A DNA stretch of 64,000 nucleotides, from the NCBI RefSeq assembly GCF_036365525.1, contig NC_090374.1:152832989-152896988 (forward strand), written 5' to 3'. Position 1 is the first letter of the stretch, and every line of letters starts with the position of its first letter. The notes beneath the pieces were generated by a model. It did no database searches, was not told where the DNA came from, and was given only the letters and a program-made list of their open reading frames with translations. The DNA comes from Heterodontus francisci. Taxonomy: Eukaryota. Positions 12,835 through 63,681 of this stretch are shown here, one piece after another. The position numbers and the translations under genes are program-made.

Positions 12835-12891
12835 CCCCTGTGTATTTCACATTATTCAATGAGTCACTGAGCAGCCTTCCCTTTATATAAA
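12835..12891 (+). promoter_or_regulatory. Proximal promoter of SPINK gene A: broken E-box CCCCTG (12835), TC-like box TTTCACA (12845), AP-1 TGAGTCA (12860), TATATAAA (12884)
   Basis: Motifs read directly about 90-140 nt upstream of the ATG; aligns without gaps to the gene B promoter. Confidence 0.75.
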
Positions 12892-12977: not shown

Positions 12978-13032
12978 ATGAAACCATTCTCAGCTTTTAC
13001 TCTGCTCACCCTAATCTTCCTCTGCGCCATGG
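12978..13032 (+). CDS. SPINK: SPINK gene A exon 1 (signal peptide [18 protein letters not shown])
   Basis: ATG at 12978, hydrophobic leader, donor ATGG|gtaagt at 13033, upstream TATA; paralogous to 63245-63299. Confidence 0.9.
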
Positions 13033-19000: not shown

Positions 19001-22000
19001 AACCTAAGTAAATTGCTCAAGGTGCTTCACTGAGTGTTATAAGGTAAAATTTGACATAAGGAGATATTAGGGCAGATGATGACAAGCTTAGTCAACGAGA
19101 TAGATTTTAAGGAGCACCTTGAAGGAGGAAAGAGAAGTAGAGAGGCGGAGATGTTTAGGAAGGGAATTCCAGTGCTTAGGACCTGGGCAGTTGAAGGTAT
19201 GACCAATAGCGGTAGAGCAATTAAAATTGGGATGCTCAAAAGACCAGAATTGGATGAGCACAGATATCTCAGAGGGTTGTGCAGCTGGAGAAGATTGCAA
19301 AAGTAGGGAGAGGTGAAGCCATGGAGGGATTTAAAACAAGAATGAGTATTTTAAAAATCAAGGTATTACTTAACTTGGGTTTCCTCCGGGTGCTCCGGTT
19401 TCCTCCCACATGCCAAAGACTTGCAGGTTGATAGGTTAATTGGCCATTATAAATTGCCCCTAGTATAGGTAGGTGGTAGGGAAATATATAGGGACAGGTG
19501 GGGATGTGGTAGGAATATGGGATTAGTGTAGGATTAGTATAAATGGGTGGTTGATGGTCGGCACAGACTCGGTGGGCCGAAGGGCCTGTTTCAGTGCTGT
19601 ATCTCTAAACTAAACTAAACTTAACTGGAAGTCAGTGTAGGTCAACGAGCACAGGGACAACTGGTGAATGGAACTTGATGCAAGTTAGGACATGGGCAGC
19701 AGAGTTTTGGATGACCTCAAGTCAACGGAGGGTAGATTGTGGGAGCCTGCAAAGTAGCGCTTTGGAACAGTCAAGTCTGGAGGTAACAAAGGTGTGGATG
19801 AGGATTTCAGCAGCAGATGAGCAGAGGCAGGCGTGGAGTCGGGCGATGCTACTGAGGTGGAAATAGGCAGTCTTAATGATGGAGCAGCTATGTGGTCGGA
19901 AGATCATCTCAGGCTCAAATATGTCACCAAGATTGTGAGCAGTCTGGTTCAGCCCCAAACAGTTGCCAGAGAGAGGGACACAGCTTGTCACGTGTACTGA
20001 AGGCAATGGCTTCTGTCTTCCCAATATTTAATTGGAGGAAATATCTGCTCATACAGTGCCGCATGTTGGACAAGCAGTCTGACAATCTAAAGATAGTGGA
20101 CGTATCGAGAAAGGTGGGGATGAGATGGAGCTAGGTGCCATCAGTGTACATGTGGAAACTGATGCTCTGTTTTTGGATGCTGTCGCTAAGGGGAAGCATG
20201 TAGATGAGAAATAGGAGGAGCCAAGGATAGATCCTTGGGGGACACCAGAGGTAAGTGTACAGGAGCAGGAAGGGTGATTCTCTGGCTATGATTAGATAGA
20301 GAGGAATGGAACCAGGAGAGTGCGGTCACAGCCAGCTGGGCAGCAGAGAGGTGTTGGAGGAAGCTGGTGTGGTCATCTGTGTCAAAGACTGTAGACAGTC
20401 CAAAAAGGACGAGGAGGGATAGTTTACCTTTGTTGCAGTCACATAGGCTGTCATTTGTGACTCATATAACAACTGGTTCTGTACAGTGGTGCAGCAGAAA
20501 CTGTGTTACGACCGGGTGAGGAAGGGGTCTCAGGCTTCCCTCTCGCCCCTCTCTTGGTTTGGCCGTAACAGGGTTTAACTTTTAAAACACAGTGTTTTTA
20601 GCTTCACCTCAGTGAGTCCTTGCTCACTGCTTTCTAATTGTAATTGTAAATAAACCAATCAGACAGGCTTTCTTAGGTTTAAACAAGAAAGATGTAAGTT
20701 TATTAGCATTAACACTCTAACTCAGTTAAAATTACTAAAAATACATGACGCAACCACGCAAGCATGCATACAAGATAAACACCCACACAAATAGATACAG
20801 AGGAGGAGGAAGAATTAAAGGGGGAGGGTTTTGGAGCAGTTGATGGAATTCAGTTACTGTCTTTGGTTTGGATGTAAAGTCCTTGATTAGAGTTATGTCT
20901 TGCAGTTCTCACTGGGGCCCAATGCACACTTTCAAACTTGTTTTGCTGGTACCAGAAGGCTGAAGATGTCCTCTGTCTTGAGGCTTAAGCTGCTTCCGTG
21001 GGTCCCTGGTACCTTTTGAGAGAGAGGGAGAGAGCTTCCTTCTCTTTAGTCTTCAAATAGTGAGCAGTTTTGGCAGATGAGAGAGGGACTTCACAGAGTT
21101 TATGTTCTCCAGCCAGATCTGGCAGTGAATGGCTAGACCAGTTGCCATTTCTATTCATTCTGCATCCCTTGGACCTAAGGGAGTGGAGTTGAGGGCCATA
21201 CTGGAAGAACGTCCAGGGTGAGAGAATGGGGACTAAGACATCAAAGGTAGAGGTGAGGGTGTGGTTCAGCAGATCCTTAGCTGCAGAAATGTCACGGCGG
21301 CTAGAGGGCCAAAGACCAGACAGTTTGGATTTTGAGGGCTGAATTTAATGCAGCTGTTAAAAGAGGGAATGATGGCGTGGGGATGGGGGGTGGGGGATGG
21401 AGAATCACATGACGAAACAGTCCACCCGAAAATCTGGTGTTGTGACGTCAGTTCTGAATTAAGTCAAAGGTGGGAAAGCACCAAGGTGGTATTGCTGCCC
21501 CGAGGTGATGAGAATCACATTTAAATTGCGAGCGGGCAGCACCCGTGCCTTCAGGTTTATGGCCTTTAAAAGCTGGTGGCACCAAGTCAAGAAGCTTCAG
21601 TGCCACAACGGGGAGGCAGCCATGAACTGTGCTGCATAGGGGAAGAGGAGGTTGCAGAGGACATTGTTGGATTGTGTGTTCTGCAAGGTGTGTGGGGGTC
21701 TTGGGGTCCCTGACGGGGTTCTGAGCCTCGATTGATTTAAAAAGGGGGATCTAGGTTTGGGTGGTTGTACTGGGTGACTAAACTGTTGTGTGAGATGTTT
21801 GGTCGCCCATACTGCTGGATGAGAGGGTCAGCTATCAGCAAAGGTGGGTACTGAGGGCCTTGGAGAAGTTGCAAAAGCTCAGTTGGCAGGACAGGGTCCT
21901 CTCTGCATCGACAGCGGTCTGAAGGCCTACTGTCTTATGCACCTGCTTCAGGATGAGTTGCGACCTATGGGATTTCAGGGTCGCCCTATACCCATCGCCC

Positions 22001-25000: not shown

Positions 25001-28000
25001 ACCCGCAACTGCTCTGTGGTCATTTTTAAAAATTATTCATTCATGGGATGAGAGCGTCGCTGGCCAGGCCAACATTTATTGCCCATCCCTAATTGCCCTT
25101 GAGAAGGTGGTGGTGAGCTGCCTTCTTGAACCACTGCAGTCTATGTGGGGTAGGTACACCCACAGTGCTGTTAGGAAGGGAGATCCAGGATTTTGACCCA
25201 GCGACAGTGAAGGAACGGCGATATAGTTCCAAGTCAGGATGGTGTGTGACTTGGAGGGGAACTTGCAGGTGGTGGTGTTCCCATGCATCTGCTGCCCTTG
25301 TCCTTCTAATTGGTAGAGGTCGTGGGTTTGGAAGGTGCTATGTAAGGAACCTTGGTGCATTGCTGCAGTGCATCTTGTTGATGGTACACACTGCTGCCAC
25401 TGTGCATCAGTGGTGGAGGGAGTGAATGTTCATGGATGGGGTGTCAATCACGTGGGCTGCTTTGTCCTGGATAGTGTCGAGCTTCTTGAGTGTTGTTGGA
25501 GCTGCCCCATCCAGGCAAGTATTCCATCACACTCCTGACATGTGCCTTGTAGATGGTGGACAGGCTTTGGGGAGTTAGGAGATGAGTTACTCGCCACAGG
25601 ATTCCTAGCCTCTGACCTGCTCTTGTAGCCACGGTATTTATATGTTTACTGCAGTTCAGTTTCTGGTCAATGGTATCCCTTAGGATGTTGATAGTGGGGG
25701 ATTCAGCGATGGTAAAGCCATTGAATGTCAAGGGGAGATGGTTAGATTCTCTCTTGTTGGAGATAGTCATTGCCTGGCACTTGTGTGGCACGAATGTTAC
25801 TTGCCACTTATCAGCCCAAGCCTGGATATTGTCCAAGTCTTGCTGCACTTCTACATGGACTGCTTCAGTATCTGAGGAGTTGCAAATGGTGCTGAACATT
25901 GTGCAATCATCAGCGAACATCCCCACTTCTGACCTTATGATTGAAGGAAGGTCATTGATGATGCAGCTGAAGATGGTTGGGCCTAGGACACTACCCTGAG
26001 GAACTCCTGCAGTGATATCCTGGAGCTCAGATGATTGACCTCCAACAACCACAACCATCTTCTTTTGTGCGAGGTATGACTCCAACCAGTGGAGAGTTTT
26101 CCCCCTGGTTCCCATTGACTTCGGTTTTGCTCGGGCTCCTCGATGCCATCTCGGTCAAATACTGCTTTGATGTCAAGGGCAGTCACTCTCACATCACCTC
26201 TTGAGTTTAGCTCTTTTGTCCATGTTTGAACCAAGGCTGTAATGAGGTCAGGAGCTAAGTGGCCCTGGCAGAACCCAAACTGAGCATCACTGAGCAGGTT
26301 ATTGCTAAGCAAGTGCCGCTTGATGGCACTGTTGATGACACCTTACATCAATTTACTGATGATTGAGAGTAGGCTGATGGGGCAGTAATTGGCCGGGTTG
26401 GACTTGTCCTGCTTTTTGTGTACAGGACATACCTGGGCAATTTTCCACATTGCAGGGTAGATGCCAGTGTTGTAGCTGTACTGGAACAGCTTGGCTAGGG
26501 GTGCGGCAAGTTCTGGAGCACAGGATTTCAGTACTATTGCCGGAATATTGTCAGCGCCCATAGCTTTTGCAGTATCCAGTGCCTTCGGTTGTTTCTTGAT
26601 ATCACGTGGAGTGAATCGAATTGGCTGAAGTCTGGCATCTGTGATGCTGGGAAGTTCAGGAGGAGGCCGAGATGGATCATCAACTCGGCACTTCTGGCTG
26701 AAGATTGTTGCAAATGCTTTAGTCTTATCTTTTGCACTGATGTGCTGTGCTCCCCCATCATTGAGGATGGGGATATTTATGGAGCCAACTCCTCCAGTTA
26801 GTTGTTTAATTGTCCACCACCATTCACGGCTGGATGTGGCAGAACTGCAGAGCTTAGATCTGATCCGTTGGTTATGGGATCGCTTAGCTCTGTCTAGTGC
26901 ATGCTGCTTACGCAGTTTGACACGCAGATAGTCCTGTGTTGTAGCTTCACCAGGTTGACACCTCATTTTGAGGTATGCCTGGTGTTGCTCCTGGCATGCC
27001 CTCCTGCACTCTTCATTGAATCAGGGTTGGTCTCCTGAGTGGTTCCAGCATTTCTTGTTTTTATTTCAGATTTCCAGCATCCGCAGTATTTTGCTTTTAT
27101 TTTGGTCTCCTGGCTTGATGGGTAATGGGAGAATGGGGGATATGCCAGGCCATGAGGTTACAGATTGTGGTTGAGTACATCTGACGCCATACCTGGCCTC
27201 TTGCCTCCCACCCCACCATGTGATTGTGGAGGTGGGGGGAAGCCCCTCGTCTCCAGTATGTGAAATGGCCGCCCGCCGCATGTTCACGGTGGGACGGGCA
27301 TCCATGTCACAAATAAAAACAAGGGCGGCACAGTGGCGCAGTGGTTAGCACCGCAGCCTCACAGCTCCAGGGACCCGGGTTCGATTCCGGGTACCGCCTA
27401 TGTGGAGTTTGCAAGTTCTCCCTGTGTCTGCGTGGGTTTTCTCCGGGTGCTCCGGTTTTCTCCCACAAGCCAAAAGACTTGCAGGTTGATAGGTAAATTG
27501 GCCATTATAAATTGTCACTAGTATAGGTAGGTGGTAGGGAAATATAGGGACAGGTGGGGATGTTTGGTAGGAATATGGGATTAGTGTAGGATTAGTATAA
27601 ATGGGTGGTTGATGTTCGGCACAGACTTGGTGGGCCGAAGAGCCTGTTTCAGTGCTGTATCTCTAATCTAATCTAATCTAATTGGAAACGGCACCTGTTT
27701 CCAGTCCCACCGTCGGAACTAAATTCATCCCTGGAAGTGCAGTTGTAAGTGAATCGGAAGGCAGTGGAGGGTTCGAGTGATGTAGTAGAGTGCTAGAGTT
27801 GGATGTCATCAGTATACATGTGGAAGCTGTCCCCATGTTTTCATATGATGTTGCTAAGGAACAACATTTAAACAAATAAGTTGTATGGTGTCTCCATTCA
27901 AGAGGGAATTATACAAACAACTTAAATGTTCAGATATTGATTGCTGTAATTCCAAAACTTGAGTTAGCCAGAAATTTGCTCTTTGATTGAATTCCTGGTG

Positions 28001-31000
28001 GAGTAACTCTAAGACTAATATGTAAAATATTTGTTTTGTTTAAATGACTTAACACAATGTGAAACTTTAGTGATACAGTTAAGAACTGCATGTTCTTTGC
28101 ATTTTTTGATAGTCAGCAATCTTTATTGTGAAATAATTTTGTTTTGTTATTTTGATTCTTCTAGTTGTAGTGAGCGAACTCCAGATGAAGGTATGATGTG
28201 CAACTTTACTTCCCTTTTCTAAATGTTCATATTGCCAGTCTGGGATTTTGAGCTGCTACAGTTGTTCTGTCCTCAGATCCAACCGTACTGTAATGAGGTA
28301 CCCAAGAAGATCCCAGTCTGTGATCAAAACTATGCACCAGTCTGTGGAACTAACGGAGTGACCTATGGCAATGAATGTCGACTCTGCGTTGCAGTTTGGT
28401 ATGTTCTTTTAAAAGCAGAAACTTGAGGGGGTATTTTATACAGCTGTACACCTTGCACAATGATGGAGGTCAGGTTAGAGAAAGAAGAGAACAATATGTG
28501 GGGCAAAATTAGAGTTGGACAGTAGGATAAAGATGATGGAAAAGTAAATCAGGTGGAGGGTAGCAAAATCCTGCCCCTAAGGAAGCATAATCGGCCATTT
28601 TGCACTGCTGTCCATGATATTTCAGGCTGTAAGGGGTACACTCAGCAAGGCGGCAATCCTAGCACAGATACTCACTCGGCAGGAGAACTGGTGCCATAGT
28701 GTTACCACCCTGGCTCTTACTCATGCTCCCTTCCAATGATACAACCCAGCTGAATTTGCCCTTCTTGCCCTCATTCTCTGACCTGTGTTTGTACCTGGAA
28801 TACATGCAGGTACATGCAGGTAGCAAAAATTAGGCAATGCTGAAAACACTCAGCAGGTCAGTTAGCATCTGTGAAGAGAGGAAGGTAGGTTAATGTTTAA
28901 GATCAATGATCTTTTGTTTACCCTACCCTCTTCTCTCCAGAGGTGCTCCCTGATGTGCTGGGTGTTTCTGGCATTTTCTAATTTTATTACAGATTTCCAG
29001 CATCTGCAGCATTTGCTTTAAGTCGTGCAAAAAATGAAGGACCATCTGCAAAATGATTTTATTTCCTCTACCAATATTCTTATCATATTTCATCCATTGG
29101 CTTGTACCCTTAATAGCTTCTATTGAACAGTGATTGTTCTAGTTAAAACCACTTGTAAAAGGATATAAGTATGACAAAGGCCGGGCAATAGATTGGAGAA
29201 AAGTTTATTTTGAGGGGTTGAGAATAGAACCTTGGAAAATAAAAATGACAATAGCATCGGCAAACAATGATGTAGATAAGTAATGGAAAACATTTAATAA
29301 GGTGTCCAACAGAACCCAGGGAAAATAGATTCCGCTAAAATACAAGAAGAAACTAAATACTAACGAGGCACCATGGATGAGTAAGGACATAAGGGAAAAA
29401 TTGCGAGTAAGAAAAGAGACATACACCAAGTACAAGGGCAGCAGGGGAGAGCATGACAAGAGAGAATACGAAGAGACTAGGAGAGAAGACAAGGAAACAA
29501 TTAGGAAGGCAAAGAGAAACTATGAAATTAAATTATCAAGGAACATAAAACAAAATATTAAATTATTCTATAGGCACATAAGTAATAAAAGGAAAGCCGT
29601 GATGGGAATAGGGCCACTTAATGATAGACAGGATAAAATCGCAGGCAGGTATAGCCAAATGGCAGAAATATTAAATAATTATTTTGCTTCAGTATTTACC
29701 AGAGAGATGGATCAGGTGATTCTGACCAATGTTCCCACTCAGATGCCTGTGTGCACGATTGCACAACAGTCTGAAAGGTACTATGAAAAAAAATTTAAAG
29801 GTACCGCGCATTGAAAAAACTGGCCATGCACAACAATGAAATTTTATAGGGAGCATTGGATATGACATCAGAAGATGAGATTTAAAAATGATATAACTGC
29901 ATTTAAAATAAAGAGGAGAAATAGTAAATAAACTAAACAAATTTAGAAAGGATAAAACACCAGTCTGGATGCAATGTGTCTGCAAATTCCAAAAGAATCT
30001 AGGGAAGAGATAACAGAGGCACTATTACACATAGTCAATCATTTATTAGAAAAAGGCACAGTGCCAGAACGCTGGTGGTAGCTAACATTATACCCATATT
30101 TAAAAATGGAGATAGAATATGTCCAGGGAACCATACACCAGTCAGTTTGACAGCAGTAGTAGGAAAAATAATGGAATCCCTGCTATAGGATAAAATAGAA
30201 AAAACATCTAGAAACTAAAAATATAATAATGAATAGTCAACATGGATTTCAAAAGGCAAAGTCTTGCTTGATTAAACTCATTGAATTCTTTGAAGAGGTA
30301 ACAGAGAGAGTAGATAATGGCAATATAATAGATGTAATATATCTAGATTTCCAAAAGGCTTTTGATGAGGTACCACATAATAGAATTGTGAATATAGTCA
30401 CAGCATGCAGAGTCAGGGGAAAAGTAGCAGAATGGATAGCAAGCTGGCTGTAATACAGAAAGCAGAGAAGGGGTAAAAGGTAACAATTCAGAGTGGCAGA
30501 AGGTGGGAATTGGGGTCCCACACTGAGGTGAACTGCAACAAATTACAAGAAAACTTCCAAATGGGCAGACAATTGGCAAATGAATTTCAGCATAGACAAA
30601 CGTTAGGTATTATATTTTGGTAAGAAAAATAAGGAAATCACGTATTACTTGGAAAATAAGAATTTAAATGGGGCAGAGGAACAAAGGGATCTGTGAGTAC
30701 AAATACGCAAATCACGAAAAGTTGTGATGTAGGTTAATAAGTCCATAACAAAAGCAAATCAAGCACTAGGTTTTATTTCTGAGTGGTAGAATGGAAAAGT
30801 AGATAAGCAACCTGTATTGAACTTTGGTTAGACCACACTTGGAGTACTGTATAGTTCTGGTCGCCATAATATAAAAAGGATATAGAGGCCGGGATTTTAC
30901 CCTAGGCGTACGGGAGCTGGCCACCGACTAAAAAGTCGGCCGTTAAGTGGCTACTTAAGGGCTTTGATAGGCCTGGGGCGGGCGGGCCGTTTCTTGCCAC

Positions 31001-54533: not shown

Positions 54534-57500
54534 CTGGAATAGCAGCAAAGCATCAGTAAAATCAGTCTAAAAATGAAGACAACTGTTTCCAATGCACAAT
54601 GTTGGAGTATTCAGCCATGTCACAGGTTGACTGCTAGCTTTTGGAGTACTCCTGCAGCTCTTGCTTATTTTACTCTGCTCTAGTAGCTATAAAAAGCAAT
54701 GGGGTTTATTTCATTTTTATCGCCAGATTAAAAAAGGAGTGGTAGGGAGTAGGCCACTCATTTTACATCTTGTCCAATTTCCTTTTCAACTCATTGAAGA
54801 TGTGTACCATGGACTTCGGATTTGCTATCAACCATTTTTCACGCCACCCTATGTTAATAGGGTGAAGTATGGTGTGAGGAGGCTCATGTGGAGCAGAAAC
54901 ACTGGCATGGACCTGTTGGCCTGTTTCTGTGCTGTAAATAATATGTAATACAATGTTTACAACAGTTTGTAAACAATCACTCAAGGAAGGGGATCACCAC
55001 CACCTGCTCAGGGCAATTTGGGATTGGTAATAAAAGTAGTCTTGCCCATATCACAGGAACAATTTTTAAAAAGTGCTGTTTGTGGGAGCTTGTTTTACAT
55101 AATTTGGCTGCTGAGTTTGCTGACTGCTCATCAAAAGTAACCTTGGTTATGAAGAACCTTATGATATTATGGTGAAGAGGTGCTATATAAATGCAAATTT
55201 CTAACTTTCTTCAACAAAGTAATACTTTACATCAAAGTTGCTTCACCCTCACTTCCTCACTAACTGCTGACCACCCAACTTCCCTTTCTGGCTCTTATGA
55301 TAGATATAAATGATTCCCTCTCCTCCGAACTGTTTCCTCCGTTTCAAATTTGCTGTCACACTTTCCTAAATAAAAACACCCATGACTCCTCTGTCCTTGT
55401 AAAATACCACCCCATCTCCAAACTCCCTTTCCTCTCCAAAATCCTCGAACACGTTGTCACCTCCCAATCTGTCCCGAACTTTCCTGCAACTTCATGTTTG
55501 AACCTTTCAAATCAGGTTTCTGTCCTGCCACAGCACTGAAATGGCCTTTATCAAAATCACAAATGACATTCTTTATGACTGTAATCATAGTGAACTATCC
55601 ATTCTCATTCTTCTCAGCCCGTCTGCAGCCTTTCACAAGGTTGGTCATACTATCCTCCTCCATTGCTTCTCCTCCTTTGTCCAGCTGGGTGAGACGGCTC
55701 ACACCTCATTCCATTCTTATTTATCCAGTTGTAGCCAGAGAATCTGTTGCAATGGTTTCTTATCTCACTCACACAGTCTTACCTCTGTAGTCCCCAAGGA
55801 TCTTGGCCCCCTTTTCGTCCTTATCTGCATGCGGCCCCTTGGCAACATCATCCGAAAACACATCAAATTCCATATTATACGCTGACTACACGAAGCACTA
55901 CACGAAGCGCTACCTCACCACTACCTCTTTCAATCACACCCACTGCCTTTGATTTGTTATGCTGCTTGTCTGACATCCAATATTTTATGAGCAGATATTC
56001 TCTTCAATTAAATATTTGGAAGACTGAAGCCTCGATCTTCAGTGCCTGCCTCAAACTCCATCCCCCTCTAAGCCACTGTCTGATGCCAGCCCAAACTGCT
56101 CACAATTTGACCCCGAGATGAGCTTCTGACCCCTTATTGGCTCCATCACCAAGAGCACCTACTTCCGCCTCATAATATCGTCTGTCTACTCTATCCCAGC
56201 CAATCTGCTGCTGAAACATTCACTCATGCTTTTGTTACCTCCAGACTTGACTATTCCAATGCTCTCCTGACTGGTCTCATCTTCCACCCTTTGTAAATTT
56301 GAACTTATCCAAAACTCCGCTGCCCATATCCTAATTTGCCCCAAGTCTCATTCACCCATCAGCCCTGTGTTCGCTGACCCATATTGGCTCCAAATCCAGC
56401 TTTAAATTTATAATTCTCATCCTTATTTTCAAATCCCTGCATTCCCTCACCACTTCCTACCTCCATAACCTCCTCCTCTCCTGCAACCCTCTGAGAATTC
56501 TGTGTTCCTGCAATTCTGGTGTCTTGTGCATCTCCAATTTGTATCGCTCTATTGGCTGCTGTGCTTTCAGTTGTCTAAGCCCTAAGCTTAGGAATTCCCT
56601 CCCTATGCCTCTCCACCTCTCTGCATGTTTCCTCCTTAAGATGCTCCTTAAAACCTCTCTTTGAAGTCTCAATATCTTGTTACGTGGTTCAGTGTTAAAT
56701 TCTGTCAAATAACACTTCTGTAAAGCATCTTGGAACACTTTACTATATTAAAGAAGCTATATAAATGTAAGTTTTTGTTTTCCTTTCCCATTTAACATTC
56801 ATTAAAGGAAAAGTCTTTGAAATGCATTTGAGATCCAGTGGATGGACACTTGTAAAAGCATGACTTGTTAAATTGTAAATCACCAAGTAATAAGGAAAAG
56901 GAAACCATATTTAACTATCCTGCTGCAGTTCTGCTGTTAGCTTCCACAGTCCCTACATTGAAGTGCCAGACAAAATTATGTAATTAAATGGGTCCCTGAA
57001 CCCACTACTTTCTGATTTAGAGGCAAGATTATGATCAACTGAACTATGCTGTCACTTTTATAGATTATCTTCAGTTTTATTCACAACTGAGTTTTGTACA
57101 TGACAACTAACCTTGTGCCACACAGCTGCTCAATCCACAGCTATTGAAAGGTGCATATATTGTATTTTTTAAACATTCAGATATTTGAACAAGCTTTGCT
57201 TGGAATGATCAGAATACCTGATTAAGTAAATACTACAGAGAGTATAAGACTGTGGTCTTAGAGGTGCAATACATTAAGAATAATGTAAGAAATAAATAAT
57301 TTCACAGCTTATCCTCCAATTTGCTTGTGCTGATAACAATGTTCCCATTTTGCAATACATCAAATCATTCCAGGGCACCATGTGTTTTTTTTTCTGAAGA
57401 AGCACAAAGAATGTGGCTTACCAGTTTTGTACACACAGTAAGCATTCGTTGCCATACGTTCTCCCATCAGTTCCACAGACTGGATTGTATTCCATGGTAC

Positions 57501-60500
57501 ACATTTCAGTCATCTCTCCTGAACATCTTGCCTAGAACATCAAACATAATTAATTCTGCATATTGAATACTTTGACATTAAAAATGTTCTAAAATGAACA
57601 GTAAATACAGGTGCTGTGGAAGGGAGGGAGGGAGATGCCGGTGCTGTGGAAGAGAGAGTGATTTTTCAGTCATACTTGTTTGGAATCTAAATCACAAAGT
57701 GAAAATAGATGCATTCCAAGAAACAAATGCTTTAAAGTTCAAGATAAAGTATACATTTCCTACCTCTATTGGAACGCCAGTGTTTGCAGCTGCAAATATC
57801 AACATGGCAGAAAGAAAAATTGTTACTGCACAGGTTAATAACATAACATAAAATCAACAGATTTTGTCTGTAGCTGTGTATGAATGATGATCCTGTGTTA
57901 TGATATTCCAAAACAATATTTAGAAAACTTGTGTTACAATGTTATACCAAATCGCTTAAACAATTAACTTTCTCCCACTTTGTGTTATTTCTTCTTGTTC
58001 ACTATCAAGCCAGGAGGCAGTTCCATCATTCTGTGACCAACTGCTTTGATGTAGAGAGAGCATTTGAGGGTTGACTCTCCATTTTCTCCCTTTCTCCAAA
58101 TGGTGAAAGCTTCACCCTGTTGGTTGGTGCCCCGAGTGAGGAATCATGTGTCTTTGGACCCCTTGCTATAGACATTACTGCCAACTGGATATTATGGAAA
58201 TACCTCACACCAAATATTTCCCAAAAGCCACAGGACTTTTCCTACGTATTTAGCAATGCTATGCTCTTACTTGGAAAGCAGTTTTAGTGGACATATCTCT
58301 TTGCCACCAATAGCATAATCCTCATGTAATCAAGCATTGGCCATTGATGTCTACAGAGTTGAGATGAATGCAATATGATAAAAAGAGTGATTGAGTAAAA
58401 AGAGTGATTGAGTTTGGCAGTAGAAATCTATAAACACACAATATAATTTCTTGAACTCATTCATGGATTAGCAATATGACAAACTTGCCCATCACAGAGA
58501 TTGCATACTTTAATCTCTAATATCTTCCCTCTCCACCCCATCTCAGCCGATATACTGCTGAAACCTTCATCATGCCTTTGTCACCTGCACACTTGACTAT
58601 TCAGCCTTCTATCCTGCACCTTCCATAAATTTGAGGTCACCCAAAACCGGACTGCTACCCTATCCTGCAATTGGCCTGTTACATCCATTGCCCTTGTGCA
58701 CATTGGCCTACATTGGCTTCTGGTCCACTCATGCTTAAATTTTACATTTTCATTATGTTCAATTGCCTCCATAGCCTCTCTCCTCCCTATCTCTGTAACC
58801 TCCTGTCCTACAACCATCTAAAAATTGTGTTCCTCCAACTCTGGCATCCGATGCATCCCCTACTCCCTTTGCCCCATCTGCGGTGGCTGTGCCTTCAGAT
58901 GTCTGGACACTTAGCTCTGGAATTCCCTCCTTAAACCTACCCACCTCTATCCTGTTCTTTAAGACCCTCCTTAAAACCTACCTCTGATCAAGCTTCTAAT
59001 CATCCCTTGTAATATTTCTCCTTTTTTCTAGGTGTCAAATTTTGTCTGATTAAGCTTCTGTGAAGCTCCTTGGGATATTTCCTTATGCTAAAGGTACTGC
59101 ATAAATGCAAATGATTATTGTTCTATGATCTGGAACTGACCCTTCCTCCATTGGGAATGAGTTCAGTTTCCAGACCGTGTTGGACTCAGGGCCAAAGATG
59201 TTTCTGATCCTCAGTATTGGATGCACAAAAATGTGTCAGCGATTTACATTCAGACTTTTATTGGTTGAAAAACTAGCCTTTAAAATCAATGAAAGCCCAT
59301 TTTTGGAAAGGTGCTTTCATATTCAAGGTAGAGAGTGCAGCACTGAGGAACAATAAAATAGATAAGCAAAAGATTGCAGGGCTAGTTTTAAACTCAAGAA
59401 AGGATTAAAATAGATCATGAGGACAAATGTTGGAAATAGAGCAGTAAATCTGAAGTAGTAAGTTGGAGATAAGGAATAACAGGAAAAGCAGAATTCAAAT
59501 GTTTAATTTTTTTATTTGATTAAATCTGCTTGCTCACTGGAAGTTAAGTGGCCCTAGGCCTAAGCTGATTCCACACTACAGGTGACCTGCTCCTCAAAAC
59601 AACCTGGCAAATTCAATTCCTAACAGTCATCGATCTTTGACTCCAAAAAAACAAAAGTTAAAGTCAAGGTTTTGCAAATAAAATGGCTGAACTTTGATAA
59701 GAAATTGTGTACTGTTACCTGCATACTAAAATAGGATAAGGTTTACAATGGCAACAGTCCAACCAAATCCAGAAGGCATTTGAAAATTTTTCACACAAAG
59801 TGCTAGAAGATCAAAGCTGCGGGGGTTCAATGTAAATCTTGGCTGTGTACTTGTTAGAGGAGTTACATCAGGCTGTAATGAGATACTGAGCGTAGGTGTA
59901 GTTCAGTGGTAGCAGTCTTGCCTCTATTTATTTAGAGATACAGCACTGAAACAGGCCCTTCAGTCCACCGAGTCTGTGCTGACCAACAACCAGCCAATTA
60001 TACAAATCCTACATTAACCCCATATTTTCTACCACATCCCCACCATTCTCCTACCACCTATCTACACTAGGGGCAATTTACAATGGCCAATTTACCTATC
60101 AACCTGCAAGTCTTTGGCTGTGGGAGGAAACCGGAGCACCCAGCAGAAACCCACGTAGACACAGGGAGAACTTGCAAACTCCGCACAGGCAGTACCCAGA
60201 ACTAAACCCAGGTCGCTGGAGCTGTGAGGCTGCGGTGCTAACCACTGCGCCACTGTGCCACCCTGAGTTAGAAAGTTGTGGGTTCAAGTTCCAGTCCAAA
60301 GACTTGAGCATATAATTCATGCGAACACTTCAGTGTGGTCTCAGAATGTCCCAAAGCACCTTGTAGTTAAGTATTTTGAAGTGTGGCCATTGTTGCAATC
60401 TAGAAAATGCAGCAGCCAATTTGTACACCAGCATTCTACAAATAGCAATGAAATAAAGGACAAGCTAATCTGTTTTTAGGTGCTGGTTGCTGGATTAATA

Positions 60501-63299
60501 TTGTTCAGGACACTATAGAACTCCCTGCTCTTCCTCAAATAGCATTGAGGTAATTTTAACATCCACTTTGTAGCATTGTGCTATGTTTTTAAGTCTTCAT
60601 TGAATGATGACTGCAGGCTTTATATACAGATTCAACACAAACACTATTTATTGTCTTACTTATATACATTGCATGAACTCAGGTCCAGATCTTCTCCTTG
60701 CTAGAATGTGTGTGTCCTTTCTAAGCCATGTGTTGAGTGTGTCTCTCAAAATGGTCTCTCCTTTTCTATGCCGGATGATGTCATCAAGTGCATGGTGGCC
60801 TGGTTTCTTAAAGGTGAAATCACCATTACACATTTGAGAGGGGAGGTGGGGTCTCAGCTGAACAACTCATCTGAAAGACAGCACCTCAGCGCTGACAAGT
60901 GTCAGCCAAGATTATGTGGTCAAGTCTCTTGAGTGGGACTTGAACCTGACTCAGAAACAAGAGTTGCGGCCACTGAAACATGATTGTTTAAATTTGCTAA
61001 TTCACTCACCAGGGATCAGCAGACAATGACTTGTAAAACAAACTTTGAAATTTGACAATAAATTGAGCACTGCAGGTGGTGTACGAAAAATAGGGCCACA
61101 TTTATAACGGCAATAACCCAACCCTTGGACTGTAACCTGAGTTTGGTTCTGGCAGTCTGGAGTTTGCACCTTATTGTTGAGTATTGCTGATCAAAGGAGA
61201 TAAAAAGCTACAGGAAAATAACCTTTAAAAATAAAATCATGAAAATAAGTAAGGCTGATACTAAAAGAGAAATTAAAATAAAAAGGAGAGAAACAATGGC
61301 ATAAAAGCAAAACATAACAAGGGAAAAAAAGGCTAGAGAAAAAGCACAAATTAAGAAAAACATGAAAAGAAACTTTAACATCCTGTAAACCTAAGGTAGA
61401 AGTGAAAGAAACAGGATTAGGAATAACACAAAGCAGCAATGGCTTGTTTTCAAAGTTTAACAGAGAAATATGTGTCATCATTTGCTTCTATCTTTCAATA
61501 ATGCATGATGGCAATCACACAGAAAACAGAATTCTAATGGCAGACTCTGGGAGGAAGGAATGCTCTTCCTTCACATAAAACACTGACTATCAATTAAAGG
61601 ATAAAGTATTAAGGGCAGTGGTCCATGACCAGGTCTCAACTCAACATCATGCAAATGCTTGGGCCTGTAAATTCAAGCAAAGGTTATAGTCCCTAAGCTT
61701 GAATAATGAAGGTCCTGATATTGGGCCTCAGGCCTCAATACAATAGAGATGGAATCAAAAATGAAGAACAGATTGCTGCTGGCATCACTGTGGCCCTCAG
61801 GTAAGTGAGAAAGGCTGGATGATCAGGCCTTGGGGTGGGGACCAGGGGGCTGGTAGCAGTGGTCAGGGGAGAGGCAATCAGTGTCTGGCAGGGGAGCTGC
61901 CTGCATTCTTGTAATGTGGGGTTGGGAGGTGCACTCCTGCACTTCTCAGCTCTAGATTCTGTTAAGTATGAGGCCTTCTTGGCAATTACTGCGACATTAT
62001 ACTTTGAGTTCAGCGTGTTGTGAGTAATGCGTTGGAGCATGGCAAAGATTGAAAATGGGTCCTGCAAGTGGCGCAGGACCCTAATTTAAGTAACATATTC
62101 TGTTGTTAGCATAATCAGGATGCACACTCCTGACGTCAACACATCTACCTTACACCCACATGGTGGGCGATGCACTTCTGGCTCATAATGAGTATGCACT
62201 TCCTATGTGCCATATTGGAAGGTTAGGAGGCCTGAAAAACCAGGCACTGCGTGGCTGAATTTCTGGGCCTTGATGTATTATAGGGAGCTGAAGGAAGGGA
62301 CACGTTGCTTTCCTTCAATATCTAATTTTAGTTTAGAGATACAGCACTGAAACAGGCCCTTCGGCCCACCGAGTCTGTGCCGACCATCAACCACCCATTT
62401 ATACTAATCCTACACTAATCCCATATTCCTATCACATCCCCACCTGTCCCTATATATTTCCCTACCACCTACCTATACTAGGGGCAATTTATAATGGCCA
62501 ATTAACCTATCAACCTGCAAGTCTTTGGCATGTGGGAGGAAACCGGAGCACCCAGAGGAAACCCACGCAGACACAGGGAGAACTTGCAAACTCCGCACAG
62601 GCAGTACCCAGAATCAAACCCGGGTCCCTGGAGCTGTGAGGCTGCGGTGCTAACCACTGCGCCACTGTCCACTATCCTAAACCAAAAATTATCAAGACTG
62701 CAGCTGGGAAATGCCTATACTCTTGCAAGACTGCATTTTGGAACTAGCCTCATTTGGAGCATACCCTTGAATATGGGGATGATGTGAAACTGCTGTATAA
62801 CACTGTTGAGAACTCTTTAATAAATATACTGGAGTGACATCCCTCCTTGGAGTGGGGTGCAGTGGGTGTTTAGGAAAGATTAACATGATTCCCAAGACTT
62901 TCACTTCAGTTGGAGCCAGTTGCCATTCAGGCTGGGAATCTGACACTTCACCAACCATCAGGACATGAAATGCAGGAGTAACATCACAAATACATTTTTA
63001 AAAATTGCACATGTTGATGAAGTTGCTATATAGAACAACCAGAGCAAATCATTTCCCATTGTCACTTCAAGTCTGAAGCAATTCCAGATCAAAAAGTATA
63101 AAGCACCAACAGAATGCATTGACTCCAGATCATTAGTAGCGCAGCTACTATTAAACTCAGCAAACAAAATGGCAATAAATAAAAACTGGCAACAGGAGAA
63201 ATTAAAGTCCATGACCATAAACAGTGGTATTAAGAGGAACTTACCCATGGCAAAGGATAAGAACATGGAGAGAAGAGCAAAAGCTAAGAATAGTTTCAT
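54488..63299 (-). CDS. SPINK: Kazal-type serine protease inhibitor, gene B (SPINK family); complement(join(54488..54533,57422..57531,57764..57789,63245..63299)), 78 aa: [78 protein letters not shown]
   Basis: Four GT-AG exons (55/26/110/46 nt) on the minus strand splice in frame; signal peptide and six Kazal Cys; clear paralog of gene A. Confidence 0.94.
55240..56780 (+). mobile_element. L2 LINE, degenerate (intron 3 of gene B)
   Basis: [39 protein letters not shown]; tail gctatataaatgtaag. Confidence 0.85.
57422..57531 (-). CDS. SPINK: SPINK gene B exon 3 (Kazal core)
   Basis: Acceptor tgttctag, encodes [36 protein letters not shown], donor TG|gtaagc. Confidence 0.95.
57764..57789 (-). CDS. 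SPINK: SPINK gene B exon 2 (AANTGVPIE)
   Basis: Acceptor atttgcag, donor GAG|gtagga; 26 nt; preserves the reading frame. Confidence 0.85.
58530..59120 (+). mobile_element. L2 LINE 3' fragment
   Basis: gctgaaaccttcatcatgcctttgtcacc...ataaatgcaaatgattattgtt. Confidence 0.75.
59927..60263 (-). mobile_element. Full-length HE1/V-SINE inserted in the tRNA head of a DeuSINE
   Basis: Reverse-complement of 27323-27682; flanks gtggtagcagtcttgcctct | gagttagaaagttgtgggttcaag rejoin a DeuSINE head. Confidence 0.88.
61662..62269. mobile_element. Harbinger-type MITE
   Basis: Imperfect TIRs GGCCTGTAAATTCA / TGAATTTCTGGGCC, with TTG on both flanks. Confidence 0.45.
62327..62668 (-). mobile_element. HE1/V-SINE
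   Basis: Near-identical reverse-complement of 19376-19620 plus a tRNA head. Confidence 0.92.
63245..63299 (-). CDS. SPINK: SPINK gene B exon 1 (signal peptide [18 protein letters not shown])
   Basis: ATG at 63299, donor ATGG|gtaagt; 55 nt. Confidence 0.92.
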
Positions 63300-63370: not shown

Positions 63371-63426
63371 TGATATAAAGGGAAGGCCACTCAATGACGC
63401 ACTGAGCAATGTGAAACACCCAGCTG
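63371..63426 (-). promoter_or_regulatory. Proximal promoter of SPINK gene B: E-box CAGCTG + N4 + TTTCACA (PTF1-like bipartite site), AP-1/CRE-like TGCGTCA, TATA variant TATATCA
   Basis: Minus strand reads CAGCTG ggtg TTTCACA ttgctcag TGCGTCA ttgagtggccttccctt TATATCA; aligns with 12835-12891. Confidence 0.7.
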
Positions 63427-63498: not shown

Positions 63499-63681
63499 TT
63501 TTCTTTTTTCTTTTCTTTTGGGCCTCCTTATCTCGAGAGACAATGGATATGTGCCTGGAGGTAGTCAGTGGTTTGTGAAGCAGCGCCTGGAGTGGCTATG
63601 AAGGCCAATTCTAGAGTGACAGGCTCTTCCACAGGTGCTGCAAAGAAATTTGTTTGTCGGGGCTGTTGCACAGTTGGCTCT
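63499..63681 (-). mobile_element. RTE-clade LINE 3' end
   Basis: Minus frame KFLCSTCGRACHSRIGLHSHSRRCFTNH* (RTE C-terminal zinc-finger-like motif) with an A-rich tail. Confidence 0.75.

Follow-up and report, generated by a model that had tools for sequence, protein, structure and literature searches.

A putative PTF1-driven acinar promoter in a tandem cluster of Kazal inhibitor genes of the shark Heterodontus francisci

The window analyzed here, a stretch of 64,000 nucleotides on contig C4 (NC_090374.1) of Heterodontus francisci, holds two four-exon, single-domain Kazal (SPINK) genes, A and B, each with a signal-peptide exon and with their six cysteines aligned (Table 1). The genes converge, A running on the plus strand from its ATG at 12978 to 36940 and B on the minus strand from its ATG at 63299 to 54488. 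Exons were located by translation scans, except for the 26-nt exon 2 of both genes, which was read by eye, and both Kazal domains scored above the Pfam Kazal_1 cut-off of 21 bits. Contigs from four runs (X1–X4) of one sample, which carry no tissue labels and are not on record as RNA, bridged introns 2 and 3 of gene B in all four runs and intron 2 of gene A in three of the four. Given these splice joints, the runs must contain spliced RNA, and the spliced contigs across introns indicate that A and B are both live genes.

Table 1. Coding exons and promoter elements of genes A and B, in positions of the window.
Feature	Position	Strand	Remark
Gene B exon 1, coding part, signal peptide	63245..63299	minus	loose end in run X2; protein P0012
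Gene B exon 2	57764..57789	minus	splice joint in 4/4 runs
Gene B exon 3, Kazal domain, loop Thr-Met-Glu-Tyr, P1 Met	57422..57531	minus	Pfam Kazal_1 50.9 bits
Gene B exon 4, coding part to stop codon	54488..54533	minus	splice joint in 4/4 runs
Gene B E-box CAGCTG	63426-63421	minus	~127 nt upstream of ATG
Gene B TC-like box TTTCACA	63416-63410	minus	4-nt spacer after E-box
Gene B TGCGTCA, AP-1-related element with CRE half-site	63401-63395	minus	
Gene B degraded TATA, TATATCA	63377-63371	minus	left edge of B-specific 24-nt deletion
B-specific interspersed-repeat insertion, ~180 nt	63500..63681	n/a	~75 nt upstream of E-box
Gene A exon 1, coding part, signal peptide	12978..13032	plus	loose end in run X3
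Gene A exon 2, 26 nt	28165..28190	plus	GT-AG joint in X2, X3, X4
Gene A exon 3, Kazal domain, P1 Gln	28277..28398	plus	Pfam Kazal_1 44.2 bits
Gene A exon 4, coding part to stop codon	36895..36940	plus	loose ends in X2-X4
Gene A proximal promoter	12835..12891	plus	majority state of cluster
Gene A CCCCTG	12835-12840	plus	
Gene A TTTCACA	12845-12851	plus	
Gene A TGAGTCA	12860-12866	plus	TGA[C/G]TCA consensus; also in G3, G4
Gene A TATA-type element TATATAAA	12884-12891	plus	canonical, matches TATAWAW

The RefSeq protein P0012 of H. francisci, automatically named 'Kazal-type 1-like' and present under two accessions for one protein, is the product of gene B. Its best single-domain matches in the PDB were PSTI variants, the top one aligning CTLEYRPVC with the CTMEYNPVC of B, and ovomucoid third domains and engineered PSTI variants (1cho, 2ovo, 1cgj) were among the matches. 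These proteins share with B the reactive loop T-[L/M]-E-Y, a type that inhibits chymotrypsin, elastase, and subtilisin; unlike them, B is a free-standing 78-residue precursor encoded within a shark gene cluster. Given the loop and the Met at P1, the B product is predicted to be a likely inhibitor of chymotrypsin or elastase, and not of trypsin.

Genes A and B belong to a larger group, with six Kazal exons in alternating orientations within 165 kb of C4 (152829304-152994481). Their P1 residues are Arg, Gln, Met, Thr, Lys, and Leu, the Leu copy having Pro at P1', a case of reactive-site diversification in a tandem Kazal cluster. Homologous promoters were identified in five of the six genes (A, B, G3, G4, and G5, the last three outside the window), while that of the sixth, G0 (P1 Arg), was looked for and not found. 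Given that homology between A and B continues through the signal-peptide exon 1 into intron 1, the likeness of their promoters reflects paralogy and not chance. Word-index protein searches recovered orthologues of A in Heptranchias, Pristiophorus, and Pristis and of G4 in Pristiophorus, and with orthologues of both in other sharks and a ray, the duplications must be old. The same kind of search gave no close orthologue of B among 4 matches, which is weak evidence, and a search of representative proteins returned mainly multidomain ones.

Comparison of the five promoters sets B apart from the rest. Those of A, G3, G4, and G5 are 80–86% identical to one another, and B is 70–73% identical to each of them, with a branch of 0.28 per site in an unrooted tree of low support (47 and 53). 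The TATA-type element TATATAAA is present in four of the five promoters, TGAGTCA in three (A, G3, and G4), and TTTCACA in four (A, B, G4, and G5). Only B has an E-box in register with TTTCACA; G5 carries a CAGCTG three bases further upstream and thus out of register. B alone has a repeat insertion, which had 11 other matches at 84–96% identity in the 700 kb of loci compared, and it has also lost 22 nt at one place and 24 nt at another, the latter deletion cutting the TATA element. The B promoter is therefore a remodelled outlier and that of A a typical promoter of the cluster. Given that TTTCACA is shared by four of the five paralogues and that C-n-n-C-T-G precedes it in four of five, a single base change on the long branch of B, at position 2 of the E-box, would have been enough to make the site.

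An earlier note on this DNA had described the promoters of A and B as reciprocally diverged, with B keeping an E-box that is broken in A, and A having perfect AP-1 and TATA elements. All of the motifs it named are present, those of B on the minus strand, and the gapless alignment that it drew between them was confirmed, with 44 of 56 bases identical. The reciprocity did not survive comparison with the other paralogues, because A resembles three of them and B alone was remodelled, and the words "keeps" and "broken" go further than an unrooted tree allows, which is compatible with B having gained the E-box as well as with the other copies having lost it. The TATA contrast holds insofar as A matches TATAWAW and B does not, but the change in B is the edge of the 24-nt deletion and not a point change. 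As for AP-1, TGCGTCA is bound by FRA-2, JUND, and CREB in other genes, according to the available part of PMC3083148. Given this binding elsewhere and the CRE half-site, the change in B may have shifted the tuning of the element and does not necessarily abolish it. At chance, TGASTCA is expected at ~0.05 and TATAWAW at ~0.2 per 200 bp; 50 of 220 7-mer windows are identical across A, G3, and G4, so that identity of the AP-1 7-mer in these three paralogues is not unusual and its conservation does not rise above the local background. The supposed AP-1 contrast between A and B is not supported, and our analysis gave no support for a link between gene A and either stress or a different epithelium.

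PTF1 sites consist of an E-box (CANNTG) plus a TC-box (TTTCCC) separated by one or two turns of the helix, as described in the portions available of PMC2586380, PMC7197352, and the review PMC9545688; the portion available of PMC4880809 contained no list of PTF1 sites. Gene B resembles acinar PTF1 elements in having a CANNTG E-box one turn (4-nt spacer) from a TTTC-C-A-type box within 250 nt of the ATG. It differs from them in that this box begins TTTCAC and not TTTCCC: with A at position 5, TTTCACA is one mismatch from TTTCCCA, as had been claimed. Among the papers listed by a literature search, none dealt by its title with TTTCACA as a PTF1 site.

For comparison with other promoters of this shark, a one-turn site was defined as an E-box followed after 4–5 nt by a 7-mer that differs from TTTCCCA at one position at most, located no more than 250 nt from the ATG, a rule set with B in view. 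Such sites occurred in 2.2% of 1934 background windows of 250 bp and in three of eight independent promoters of pancreatic-type enzymes (four of nine with a duplicate; binomial p ~5e-4 against background), and were absent from the other five of the eight. The promoters with such a site were those of both copies of one trypsinogen gene (CAGGTG N4 TTTCTCA), a second trypsinogen (CAGATG N5 TTTCCCA), and a colipase (CATCTG N4 TGTCCCA). The enzyme set comprised trypsinogens, carboxypeptidases, and colipase, identified from Pfam family and a reading of the translations, so that one carboxypeptidase on C11 may not be pancreatic; three genes (one carboxypeptidase and two trypsin-like) were excluded, their exon 1 having escaped detection. 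None of the nine enzyme promoters had TTTCACA in a one-turn site, while the TTTCTCA of trypsinogen, like the box of B, varies at position 5. The enrichment in enzyme promoters suggests that the E-box/TC grammar is likely used in this shark. Among eight shark SPINK promoters, B alone has a one-turn site, and the chance of one such site in eight is 0.16. The two near-identical trypsinogen genes lie head to head (L079, C39:37508200-37515200), and in each of them two GATA motifs accompany an inverted E-box/TTTCTCA site.

A genome-wide search for E-box N4 TTTCMCA followed by TATA gave 153 matches, against 2 for a reversed-pattern control that was not composition-matched. By eye, 77 of the best 100 of these 153 matches were one LINE reverse-transcriptase fragment. 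In 22 of the 23 non-LINE matches among the matches listed, crude motif and signal-peptide scans, reaching ~9.5 kb downstream for 20 and 1.5 kb for 2, found no recognisable digestive-enzyme gene downstream. Given that its matches were mostly background or one LINE, the motif was rejected as a genome-wide functional test or gene finder. The LINE is of CR1/L2 type, and the antisense strand of its reverse-transcriptase segment carries a perfect PTF1-type CASCTG N4 TTTCCCA, followed by a TATA-like run, at about position 1500 (for example in L027, L030, L032, L038, and L048); this site is probably a by-product of coding, yet it seeds many consensus sites. Related non-coding stretches at L061 (C15:7709626) and L067 (C34:32181281, also C34:33207233) have CAGCTG N4 TTTCCCA and then TTTCACA and a TATA box, and no gene was identified downstream of them.

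Which mammalian SPINK gene the cluster corresponds to bears on the tissue in which B might be made. Human SPINK1 resembles B in being a single-domain Kazal gene of four exons with a bipartite E-box/TC-type site near its start, according to the sections available of PMC3190254 and PMC8619230; the former places a proximal PTF1 site at c.-81 and the latter describes an HNF1A-PTF1L enhancer. In contrast, a pattern scan found no HNF1-like site in the 500 nt upstream of B. SPINK1 also has Lys41 at P1 (PMC11948977, in the part available), whereas B has Met and A has Gln, so that neither carries the Lys or Arg that defines SPINK1/PSTI at this position.

Surroundings differ as well. In human, JAKMIP2 is part of the SPINK1-type neighbourhood, and SPINK4 adjoins B4GALT1 in human and other mammals. 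A B4GALT gene located 2 Mb from the cluster was the best B4GALT1 match of three loci compared (125.7, 107.8, and 89.3 bits). JAKMIP exons were found on C12, C20, and C1, and none on C4. The JAKMIP-bearing C12 carries a Kazal gene of its own with Arg at P1, and no one-turn E-box/TC site was present in the 500 nt upstream of that gene. Like the SPINK4/PEC-60 locus, the shark cluster has four-exon, single-domain Kazal genes in the neighbourhood of a B4GALT1-like gene; it differs in its six Kazal exons with varied P1 residues and in the lack on C4 of NFX1-type zinc fingers, which were found on C2 and C1. A BAG search gave no position for BAG1. By comparison with human synteny, these neighbours point to a putative SPINK4-like cluster on C4 and a putative SPINK1-like gene on C12. 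Mammalian SPINK4 is a goblet-cell gene. Further single-domain Kazal genes lie at C44:26.75-26.86 Mb and C12:55.16 Mb, one with Met at P1 (L009) and three with Arg (L002, L008, and L010).

The contigs of runs X1–X4 carried some information on expression. Joints of gene B had a contig word depth of 11,778 and 10,260 in X1, 439 in X2, 3.8 in X3, and 8.5 in X4, a pattern that weakly hints at one dominant tissue, contig depth being a poor measure and the runs lacking tissue labels. For exons 2–3 of gene A there was no contig in X1, where a blank can be false, and spliced contigs had a depth of 6–9 in X2–X4. A difference in tissue between A and B was set aside as a reading of these depths, because blanks can be false and depth cannot rank genes. 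One X2 contig extends ~319 nt beyond exon 2 of B, which by arithmetic from record lengths reaches ~63564 if the contig is collinear; it would then pass the E-box and end inside the inserted repeat. With the TATA element cut, this contig possibly running upstream of the motif, and two RefSeq accessions for the one protein, any placement of the start site of B is tentative. In gene A, an X3 contig starts ~28 nt downstream of the TATA element, a weak hint given that contigs cannot show a start. Kazal or SPINK proteins were not mentioned in the available text and 2 supplements of a catshark pancreas paper (PMC4362833) or in the available part of a shark skin proteome (PMC10707392), and a literature search found no paper on shark SPINK genes.

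We consider the B promoter a putative PTF1-driven acinar promoter, and PTF1-driven acinar expression the single most likely mechanism for this gene, with a probability of about 0.45, the pancreas being read from the motif. The E-box and TC-like box of B would bind PTF1, and acinar cells of the pancreas would then express the gene strongly; there, the product with Met at P1 would inhibit chymotrypsin or elastase rather than trypsin. Bipartite control by PTF1 is in itself a mechanism of known kind, with a precedent in human SPINK1, and the catshark pancreas expresses Ptf1a together with trypsins, chymotrypsins, and elastases, as reported in the text available of PMC4362833.

A secretory tissue other than the pancreas, such as gut mucous cells or liver, as the main source of B is a serious rival, though it seems somewhat unlikely to us. 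CAGCTG would in that case be read by another bHLH protein together with TGCGTCA, while TTTCACA would belong to a shared element of greater age; ATOH1, MIST1, and TFAP4 are other candidate readers of CAGCTG. The B4GALT1-like gene near the cluster and the poor fit of Met at P1 with control of trypsin are consistent with such a tissue, as are the functional TGCGTCA of other genes (PMC3083148, in the part available) and the presence of TTTCACA in four of five paralogues, three of which have no in-register E-box. A C/EBP-type consensus overlaps bases next to the position of TTTCACA in G3, G4, and G5; however, neither A nor B has this consensus, which is common at 0.63 per 200 bp, and the E-box of B has exactly the N4 spacing of the shark trypsinogen site, which argues against this rival.

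The E-box could also be a neutral by-product of a fast-changing promoter, in which case the tissue pattern would depend on the inserted repeat, on an enhancer farther away, or on a start located upstream. The lower identity of B, its insertion and two deletions, the single substitution that suffices for an E-box, the largely background or LINE nature of genome-wide matches, and the X2 contig that may extend upstream of the motif all agree with this possibility. On the other hand, the stretch from E-box to TATA is 79% identical to that of A and gapless while its flanks are more rearranged, and sites of this type are enriched in enzyme promoters, and we regard neutrality as improbable but still a serious rival. 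Still less probable, and in our view very unlikely, is pairwise sub-functionalisation, in which PTF1 and AP-1 both acted on the ancestral promoter, B then keeping PTF1 for the pancreas and A keeping AP-1 for another, stress-responsive epithelium. The motif differences between the two genes are real, both genes are spliced, and the out-of-register CAGCTG before TTTCACA in G5 could be the relic of an ancestral site; however, A and B are not sister copies that underwent mirror losses, the state of A is common to G3 and G4, the TGCGTCA of B is itself an AP-1/CREB element, and the AP-1 7-mer is conserved at the local rate (50/220).

If the B promoter does respond to PTF1, control of a Kazal inhibitor gene by this complex either predates the split between sharks and mammals or arose twice since. 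A more specific scenario, which we put forward as an unlikely one, is that a Kazal gene of the SPINK4 locus joined the acinar programme of sharks separately from SPINK1: TTTCACA was already in place, a single base change next to it finished a PTF1 site, and the outcome was a second pancreatic secretory inhibitor, directed at chymotrypsin or elastase and not at trypsin. A pancreatic inhibitor with Met at P1 would, to our knowledge, represent self-protection of a kind not described for the mammalian pancreas. The five paralogous promoters form a natural allelic series for asking whether TTTCACA can serve as a TC-box and whether one base can act as an acinar switch. If PTF1 plays no part at gene B, its promoter would be an ordinary diverged one in a tandem SPINK cluster.

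Several minor features of the window concern gene A and the repeats. At 28277, exon 3 of A begins 6 nt upstream of where it would with the acceptor position that several other Kazal genes here use (CAA in A, CAG in those genes), and the two additional residues are common to orthologous proteins. One X4 contig joins exon 2 of A (28163-28165) to sequence absent from the window, and the Heptranchias and Pristis records of A orthologues also have other N-termini; alternative first exons are thus possible in gene A. The window also contains four SINE-like repeat copies, at 19376-19614, 27330-27687, 59927-60264, and 62327-62670, two of them 99% identical over 239 nt.
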